A stretch of DNA of 64,000 nt from Thermoproteota archaeon (GTDB lineage: Archaea; Korarchaeota; Korarchaeia; Korarchaeales; Korarchaeaceae), in assembly GCA_027491415.1 (NCBI GenBank), contig JAOZFH010000018.1, forward strand, positions 1-64,000, written 5' to 3'. Position 1 is the stretch's first letter. The number at the start of each line of letters is the position of its first letter. The notes under the pieces are model-generated. The model ran no database searches. It had not been told where the DNA came from and was given only the letters and a program-made list of their open reading frames with translations. A program made the translations under genes and the position numbers. Positions 59,600 to 59,771 of the stretch are shown here, in pieces.

Positions 59600-59607
59600 T
59601 TATATAC
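59600..59607 (+). promoter_or_regulatory. TATA box of tRNA-Trp
   Basis: TTATATAC about 26-33 nt before the mature 5' end. Confidence 0.75.
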
Positions 59608-59632
59608 TGCCTGGCCCCAGAGGGCGTGCGGT

Positions 59633-59771
59633 GGGGCCGTGGCCCAGCCAGGTGGCCTCCCGATGATAAGGCCGAGGTCGCCCTGGAAAGGTCAGGGCGG
59701 CGGGCTCCAGTCGGTGGAGCACTGAGGGGGAGACCCGTAGGACGTGGGTTCAAATCCCACCGGCCCCACCA
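59633..59771 (+). tRNA. tRNA-Trp(CCA) with two introns: 59650-59688 (17/17a) and 59711-59732 (37/38); CCA end encoded
   Basis: Acceptor stem GGGGCCG/CGGCCCC, D stem GCCC/GGGC, anticodon stem GCGGG/CCCGT with loop CT-CCA-GA, T arm GTGGG-TTCAAAT-CCCAC; bulge-helix-bulge geometry at both introns. Confidence 0.95.
59657..59730 (+). ncRNA. Putative box C/D guide split across the two tRNA-Trp introns, predicted target Cm34
   Basis: Box C ATGATAA 59663-59669 (intron 1), box D CTGA 59722-59725 (intron 2), closing stem CTCCC/GGGGG, guide TGGAGC complementary to G31-A36 with D+5 on C34. Confidence 0.6.

Follow-up and report, generated by a model that had tools for sequence, protein, structure and literature searches.

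Background

Can two introns of one precursor transfer RNA (pre-tRNA) jointly build a single RNA-guided methylation site? This question is raised by the tRNA-Trp gene at positions 59633-59771 (plus strand, as are all features described below unless stated) of the stretch of DNA analysed here, the first 64,000 nucleotides of contig JAOZFH010000018.1 of the korarchaeal assembly GCA_027491415.1 (hereafter the window). The gene has one intron in the D loop and another at the canonical position between nucleotides 37 and 38, and parts resembling a box C/D methylation guide are distributed over the two. The 2′-O-methylated wobble nucleotide Cm34 has been reported on tRNA-Trp of H. volcanii, T. kodakarensis and S. 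acidocaldarius (PMC7668247), and the guide for tRNA-Trp is reported to be "always intronic" (PMC2584109).

We suggest that each of the two introns supplies one half of a kink-turn (K-turn), and that this K-turn lies beside a guide acting in cis, in which C34 faces the fifth nucleotide upstream of the box D position (the D+5 register). Such a split K-turn with its adjoining guide is very probably a conserved, covarying feature of korarchaeal pre-tRNA-Trp, and its best explanation appears to be that it directs formation of Cm34 before splicing, a reading to which we give a probability of roughly 0.55.

A putative K-turn and guide divided between two introns

Intron 1 (59650-59688, 39 nt) interrupts the D loop, and intron 2 (59711-59732, 22 nt) occupies the 37/38 position; both are delimited by bulge-helix-bulge (BHB) motifs, and the boundary of intron 1 has up to 4 nt of slippage, with an AGGT repeat at both of its ends. 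The canonical stem of the proposed K-turn would be formed by CTCCC of intron 1 (59657-59661) and GGGGG of intron 2 (59726-59730), which in the window make four G-C pairs and one U.G; four of the latter five bases double as part of the central BHB helix of intron 2. The stem is followed in intron 1 by the proposed 3-nt bulge GAT (59662-59664), which overlaps the box C-like ATGATAA (59663-59669, one mismatch to RUGAUGA), and in intron 2 it is preceded by CTGA at the box D position (59722-59725). The bases that would face each other are G59665/A59725 and A59666/G59724, then T59667/T59723 and A59668/C59722. Upstream of CTGA, TGGAGC (59715-59720) is the exact complement of G31-A36 (GCTCCA, 59704-59709), and its G59717, the fifth base upstream of CTGA, stands opposite C34 (59707). 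A preliminary description of the locus had proposed this arrangement, and by direct reading of the sequence every base that it had listed was found in place.

When both introns were shuffled 200,000 times (mononucleotide shuffles), K-turn-like geometry (5 bp, a 3-nt bulge and GA/GA) arose in 7,890 cases, and the same geometry together with a 6-bp guide holding C34 at D+5 arose in 12. The case that can be made for the split K-turn and guide from the window alone is moderate; the decisive evidence is comparative, in that the parts of the motif are invariant or covary across four genera.

Conservation in the family

The genome collection comprised 36 genomes of the family (f1), 40 of the class and 43 of the phylum. 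The same two-intron tRNA-Trp gene was found by BLAST in 33 of the 36 family genomes, belonging to four of the five genera (g1, g2, g3 and g5); tRNA-Trp was not found by BLAST, pattern or covariance model in the remaining three, all of them incomplete assemblies (G007, 91% complete; G018, 71%; G044, 70%). From the 5′ end through the anticodon stem, the 33 genes represent 28 distinct sequences.

The motifs N-R-U-G-A-Y in intron 1 and GGAGC-N-NNGA-GG in intron 2 are retained by all 33 genomes. Measured without an alignment, from the GA dinucleotides as anchors, the inter-intron stem has at least 5 contiguous bp in every genome and up to 8 in part of g3, and it abuts both GA dinucleotides directly (stem-NRU-GA in intron 1, GA-stem in intron 2), the bulge being always 3 nt long and always N-R-U. 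All 33 sequences thus have the parts of a K-turn, namely a canonical stem, a 3-nt bulge and the bases for tandem G.A/A.G pairs, the three-dimensional fold itself being a prediction. As in a C/D guide, the K-turn adjoins what corresponds to a terminal stem, but this stem pairs two introns and not the ends of an RNA. C34 is at D+5 in 33 of 33 genomes, and the guide is 5-7 bp long in g1, g3 and g5 and 8-11 bp in g2.

The boxes themselves are kept in part. At the box C position R-U-G-A-Y is universal, with U-G-A (59664-59666 in the window) invariant, and positions 6-7 are AA, AG, AT or TG, never GA. Conservation in relatives had been set beforehand as a test of the preliminary description, and every gene-bearing genome does retain the R-U-G-A-Y core of box C and the GA of box D, together with the stem between the introns and the guide at unchanged spacing. 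The box D sequence CUGA did not hold up: next to CTGA the family has ATGA, TTGA, TCGA and TAGA, and only the GA (G59724 and A59725) is invariant.

Counted by hand from the invariant columns of the 28 distinct sequences, 22 of the 61 intron positions do not vary. Eight belong to the BHB of intron 1 (G19, G20, C49-C51, T52, G54 and A55), four to the stem (C25, G94, G95 and G98), three to the box C core (T32, G33 and A34), five to the guide (G84-C88) and two to the GA of box D (G92 and A93). The U-G-A of intron 1 and the G-A of intron 2 have no part in either BHB, and the invariant GGAGC has no BHB role except in a weak helix h′ in some genera.

A scan of metagenome contigs with a specific pattern gave 21 matches, of which 20 are the two-intron gene, 19 reach intron 1 and 8 are new relative to the genome set. 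Eighteen could be scored and keep the same parts, with a stem of 5-8 bp; the nineteenth (L217) ends inside the stem after 4 bp. A looser pattern run over the genome contigs returned at least 120 matches, mostly chance bacterial ones, and is uninformative about the split form beyond the family.

As a control we used the tRNA-Ser(CGA) gene, whose D-loop intron occurs in 36 of 36 family genomes. In this intron the flanks that form the BHB are conserved, and the apical 8-12 nt vary in both sequence and length, with no invariant column at all; invariance of R-U-G-A-Y is therefore not the default for such introns in these genomes. By eye, no comparable motif was found in the other intron-bearing tRNAs of the genome. 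The tRNA-Ser(CGA) gene with this intron lies at G000 C49:6623-6733, with orthologues L273-L302, and also occurs in G007, where tRNA-Trp was not found.

Covariation of the stem and the guide

The preliminary description had called for covariation of the CTCCC/GGGGG stem in relatives, and this was found: four of seven pairs change on both sides. Pair 7 is C-G or G-C (g3 is divided 9 to 7), pair 6 is U-A or G-C, pair 3 is C-G or, in g2, U-A, and pair 4 occurs as C-G, U.G and U-A. The covariation score of the stem is 0.253 compared with a shuffled mean of 0.175, and none of 500 shuffles reaches 0.253, although such shuffle counts overstate significance and are not probabilities because the sequences are related. 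When the register of the stem is slid, 0-2 pairs are changed on both sides.

The positions that covary are not simply those that splicing needs. Pairs 6 and 7 use the last two nucleotides of intron 2, which are bulge nucleotides in the BHB fold. In g2 the BHB of intron 2 takes another GGAG farther downstream (by eye), yet GA-GGAGG is retained, and a G-to-A change in the stem is there matched by a C-to-T change in intron 1 (U-A in 4 sequences), with pairing to C34 broken.

For the guide, a helix between G31-G37 and the intron was predicted by RNAalifold with no prior structure supplied, and five of its pairs are invariant. Its extension in g5b and g2 consists of covarying intron-intron pairs, so that the helix attains 10-11 bp and the 5′ splice site is buried in it. 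GGAGC and GA are always separated by 3 nt, of variable sequence, which holds C34 in the D+5 register throughout; the loop flanking the helix on its other side has about 3 to 9 nt. RNAalifold also offered a hairpin between columns 102-104 and 110-112 (A-U in g2) as a rival pairing partner, which we regard as an alignment artefact, because the g2 letters in those columns are intron and not the exon CCC of the other genera.

A further helix fared differently. It had been proposed that 59677-59686 pairs with 59692-59701 over 10 bp and sequesters the middle exon. This helix can form in the window (eight Watson-Crick and two G.U pairs), and it does appear in the constrained methylation fold, but across the family not one of its 10 pairs shows a two-sided change, and the outer ones fail to form in 12-20 of the 28 sequences. 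We therefore do not count it among the conserved elements.

Splicing fold and competition between folds

Both introns have BHB motifs with a 4-bp helix and two 3-nt bulges, and their removal yields a cloverleaf tRNA. In intron 1 the central helix pairs 59644-59647 with 59683-59686 (CTGG), the bulges are CCA and AAA, and helix h′ pairs 59651-59659 with 59674-59682; the central helix covaries, 5 of 28 sequences having U-A in place of C-G, and so do the first h′ pairs. In intron 2, CTCC at 59705-59708 (tRNA positions 32-35) pairs with GGGG at 59727-59730, with bulges AG/T and AG/A and cuts at 37/38. Both motifs are of the relaxed type, with a weak outer helix h in intron 1 and a weak h′ in intron 2.

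The G-rich strand and CUCC serve both the K-turn/guide fold and the BHB of intron 2. Since the BHB motifs covary as well, we conclude that two competing folds are conserved. Enforcing the K-turn stem and guide gave a nearest-neighbour energy of -65.2 kcal/mol and enforcing the double BHB gave -63.6, close to the former, with an unconstrained minimum of -74.8. The preliminary description had held that the two folds exclude each other at both introns. At the 37/38 intron this stands, as guide/K-turn and BHB are each conserved and draw on common strands; at intron 1 exclusion is partial, 3 of the 9 h′ pairs of the window overlapping the K-turn stem, with a larger overlap in g3 (by eye).

A proposed course of methylation and splicing

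The course of events that we propose would begin with the doubly unspliced pre-tRNA-Trp, to which two competing folds would be open, one for methylation and one for splicing. In the methylation fold, a stem of 5-8 bp would join the C-rich strand of the D-loop intron to the G-rich 3′ end of the 37/38 intron; beside this stem, a K-turn (a box C/D-type site for L7Ae) would arise from N-R-U-G-A on the intron 1 side and G-A on the intron 2 side, and the nucleotides upstream of the box D position would pair in cis with G31-A36, so that C34 faces the fifth of them. We infer that the K-turn would be bound by L7Ae, that Nop5 and fibrillarin would then join, and that C34 would gain its 2′-O-methyl group. 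Only afterwards would the RNA refold into two BHB motifs made from the same strands, from which the splicing endonuclease would remove both introns. Because the halves of the K-turn lie in separate introns, the site would exist only while both are present. That one C/D-type guide ribonucleoprotein (RNP) is in this manner assembled from two introns of one pre-tRNA, with wobble methylation confined to the doubly unspliced precursor ahead of the switch to two BHBs, is a proposition on which we would give even odds.

The proteins that such an RNP would need are encoded in the genome, with the fibrillarin and Nop5 genes adjacent on contig C36 and two genes of the L7Ae family.

Several observations weigh against a working guide. 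Box C has RUGAU with no second GA, box D keeps only its GA, and the pair after U.U is A.C, U.C or A.A and not G-C. In eukaryotes, the part of the motif after U.U matters for recruitment of Nop56/58. The guide of g1, g3 and g5, at 5-7 bp, is short. As the preliminary description had already cautioned, there is no convincing C′/D′ pair: by eye, in the 28-sequence alignment, no C′/D′ motif, second K-turn or K-loop was found between box C and the guide, and no Rfam C/D family matched the region at E up to 10. In reported work on a Pyrococcus system, a complex with a single site had activity but no site specificity, for which both motifs were needed (PMC1635284). The slid registers of the stem, too, still pair in 46-77% of cells, because its strands are C-rich and G-rich runs, and the inflation of the shuffle counts by relatedness counts on the same side. 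The GA of box D can furthermore pair with the first two bases of intron 2 (TC or TT) in a weak h′ in g1 and, by eye, in g3 and g5a. Part of its conservation could stem from this h′, but not in g2 or g5b, because the first bases of intron 2 differ there.

Canonical C/D small RNAs (sRNAs) are also scarce in this genome. Regular expressions for them, strict and relaxed, gave 0, 0, 2-4 and 3 matches, among which one is convincing; use of the C/D machinery on the tRNA-Trp precursor is for this reason an assumption of our reading. The convincing candidate, at G000 C40 around 14519 on the minus strand, consists of ATGATGA, 19 nt, GTGAAGA, 12 nt and CTGA, with a 5-bp terminal stem. No trans guide for C34 was found among the 83 matches of a whole-genome regular expression (TGGAGC-NNN-GA), which was not an exhaustive sRNA search. 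One candidate for that role, C36:52064-52135 (GTGACGA ... GTGACA-9 nt-CTGA, with 9 bp to the spliced anticodon loop and C34 at D+5), was rejected as a chance match because it lies at the start of a minus-strand open reading frame, has codon-like substitutions, and loses boxes and guide in G002 and G003.

Sequencing runs add little. None contains half or more of the sampled words, and the contigs that cover the locus have only unspliced forms, from relatives; their variants fall at the bulge, an h′ G.U pair, a BHB bulge and the guide loop, and none in the motif. The sole RNA-library contig over the locus is unspliced at depth 2 and may be DNA, and it cannot show transcription or splicing, a further point on the negative side. 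A joint of 59628 to 59743 in the DNA run X3 (one contig, 27 letters on the shorter side, minimum likeness 85) was left unused, such joints often coming from other organisms.

Alternative explanations

The main rival to methylation guidance, in our view an unlikely one, is that the K-turn between the introns exists but guides no methylation. Bound by L7Ae or another K-turn protein, it would serve as a clamp or chaperone that keeps the introns together and so could steer folding of the GC-rich precursor, or delay or order splicing. All of the conservation and covariation of the K-turn fits this, and a clamp accounts better than a full methyltransferase RNP does for the degenerate boxes, the missing C′/D′ motif and the short guide. 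L7Ae binds K-turns of other archaeal RNAs, among them RNase P RNA, H/ACA RNAs and rRNA. A clamp, however, leaves unexplained an invariant GGAGC complementary to the anticodon loop, a guide helix whose extension covaries, and a constant 3-nt spacing that keeps C34 at D+5; a helix in which the 5′ splice site is buried, and which in g2 has 10-11 bp, would likewise call for some reason.

It is less probable still that there is no K-turn function and that the motifs are by-products of the BHBs, of alternative precursor folds or of shared ancestry. The G-rich strand is indeed required by the BHB of intron 2 and the C-rich strand by the h′ of intron 1, K-turn-like geometry by itself arises in about 4% of intron shuffles, and the sequences are related. 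On such an account, however, U-G-A and G-A, lacking a BHB role, should not be invariant in four genera in which the neighbouring loop bases vary, as does the control loop; nor is it clear why stem positions 6-7 should covary when they are BHB bulge nucleotides, or why g2 should retain GA-GGAGG when its BHB uses another GGAG.

Least probable of all is that the excised introns, linear or circular, join through the same stem and K-turn into a two-piece trans guide acting on other pre-tRNA-Trp or on the mature tRNA. Trans action was favoured by in vitro experiments with the tRNA-Trp intron of Haloferax, introns once excised form circles (PMC2584109, PMC7994747, PMC7714728), and TGGAGC matches the mature anticodon loop too. 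Two RNAs of 22 and 39 nt held by 5-8 bp, with a guide of 5-6 bp, would however be weak in trans, and the guide extension of g2 and g5b pairs with intron-2 nucleotides just after G37, so that the guide matches the unspliced and not the spliced sequence.

Gene model of the tRNA-Trp locus

The genome containing the window comprises 1.78 Mb in 63 contigs (63% G+C), the window lying on contig C56. The Rfam tRNA model scores 45.5 bits across 59633-59768, and removal of 59650-59688 and 59711-59732 by script leaves 78 nt that ARAGORN calls tRNA-Trp(cca). With default settings ARAGORN reports nothing at 59633-59771, and with introns allowed it miscalls the locus as tRNA-His(atg) with one 45-nt intron; tRNA-Trp may for this reason be absent from the pipeline annotation of these genomes. 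As neither the 46 tRNAs called by ARAGORN nor the 43 Rfam tRNA matches of the genome include a second Trp gene, the locus should be its working tRNA-Trp gene.

By the Rfam match and the ARAGORN call on the spliced product, exon 1 (59633-59649) holds the 5′ strand of the acceptor stem, the 5′ strand of the D stem and the D loop to C17. Exon 2 (59689-59710) holds the remaining D loop, the 3′ strand of the D stem, G26, the 5′ strand of the anticodon stem and the anticodon loop to G37, and exon 3 (59733-59771) comprises A38, the 3′ strand of the anticodon stem, the variable loop, the T arm, the 3′ strand of the acceptor stem, A73 and an encoded CCA (59769-59771). Read from the sequence, the 5′ acceptor strand is 59633-59639, the D stem pairs GCCC (59642-59645) with GGGC (59695-59698), the anticodon stem pairs 59700-59704 with 59734-59738, and the anticodon CCA is at 59707-59709, followed by G37 at 59710. 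A putative archaeal TATA box, TTATATA (59600-59606), lies about 30 nt upstream of the 5′ end of the tRNA, and terminator-like T-runs are seen past 59775 (both by eye).

Two genomes of the window's own genus have a third tRNA-Trp intron, in the T loop, of about 46 nt in L012 (G001:C80) and about 29 nt in L013 (G002:C1); the window has none. The T-loop intron of L012 contains GTGATGA inside a 7-bp inverted repeat.

Comparison with other archaeal tRNA-Trp introns

The korarchaeal arrangement shares much with the intron guide of Haloferax volcanii and Pyrococcus (sR50). The tRNA is the same, C34 stands in the D+5 register relative to a box D-type element, the guide is in the 37/38 intron and adjoins its 3′ end, and in both cases the guide pairing competes with the BHB (PMC2584109, PMC7994747, PMC7714728), so that any methylation must precede splicing. 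The Haloferax/Pyrococcus type, however, has one long intron (103 nt in H. volcanii) with boxes C, D′, C′ and D and guides for both C34 and U39. In the korarchaeal form, by contrast, intron 2 is 22 nt long and has no RUGA motif, the box C half being in the separate D-loop intron, and there is one guide, no C′/D′ and degenerate boxes, position 39 being a C.

The predicted K-turn itself resembles those bound by L7Ae in its canonical stem, 3-nt bulge, tandem G.A/A.G and, in most sequences, U.U; it is unlike the usual ones in that its strands come from two introns about 60 nt apart with tRNA exon between them. The gene is also like the multi-intron tRNAs of Thermoproteales and Korarchaeota, in which non-canonical introns each have a (relaxed) BHB and which the literature, in the extracts covered, treats as carrying independent introns. 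For Korarchaeum cryptofilum, introns at non-canonical positions and an alpha2 endonuclease with a "specific loop" are described (PMC4033280).

Guides resembling the korarchaeal one occur elsewhere in single introns. In L087, L080, L158 and the sister family f2 (L180, G026:C15, and L201, G025:C1; two genomes), the 37/38 intron has a TGGAGC-type complement of the anticodon loop that is followed by NUGA or flanked by RUGA-type boxes, and both halves of the K-turn are in that one intron, unlike in family f1. The f2 intron is a single one of 57 nt, with no D-loop intron beside it; it has a D′-like CCGA or CTGA, 9 nt, a C′-like GATGAAGA and an 11-nt guide that pairs without mismatch from G30 to intron position +3, with no 5′ box C and with its GA off the spacing of f1. 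In an intron end of another organism's tRNA-Trp, a loose end in run X1, GTGATGA, a 12-nt spacer and TGGAGC-N-CTGA stand in the same register. The f1 form has the appearance of the box D end of a Trp guide intron, the matching box C now being placed in the other intron, a direction of change that we infer.

In family f3 (two genomes; L229, G027:C25) the tRNA-Trp introns are in the D loop and the T loop, the anticodon loop is uninterrupted and nothing resembling a guide is present, and Cm34, if carried there, must arise in another way. In f4, a single genome (L260, G030:C119:11230-11500), tRNA-Trp has three introns, and the 58-nt anticodon intron contains ATGAC, CTGA directly followed by ATGATT, and two partial complements of the anticodon.

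Among the more distant sequences, L087 (uncultured archaeon), L080 (a metagenome-assembled genome of Nanoarchaeia) and L158 (Altiarchaeales) have the anticodon complement and NUGA first, then a hairpin and an ATGATAA- or GATGATGA-type box. The order in L087 is guide-TTGA-hairpin-TATGATAA. This layout is that of a guide with one K-turn, in D′-then-C′ order.

Literature searches turned up no functional pairing between two introns of one pre-tRNA. A guide or K-turn common to two introns is not described in the extracts of PMC7994747, PMC7668247, PMC2584109, PMC4033280, PMC1635284, PMC7714728, PMC3491384, PMC3218864 and PMC8450103; the list of 29 archaeal Trp introns in the supplement to PMC2584109 could bear on the matter. 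As judged by these searches, the split form seems to be a new variation on the known intron-borne C/D guide of tRNA-Trp.

Conclusions

Non-canonical archaeal tRNA introns are usually viewed as functionless passengers, with the C/D intron of tRNA-Trp as the standard exception. If the proposed reading is true, pre-tRNA-Trp of this family would be the first case known to us in which two introns of one precursor jointly build one RNP site. A D-loop intron would then be linked to modification of the anticodon, giving a non-canonical tRNA intron a function of its own, and the retention of both introns across the whole family would be explained. The structure would be a natural, minimal, cis-acting C/D guide with a single K-turn, and would bear on why archaeal C/D RNPs need a bipartite RNA. 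The precursor would also have an RNA switch of its own, set for modification in one fold and for splicing in the other.

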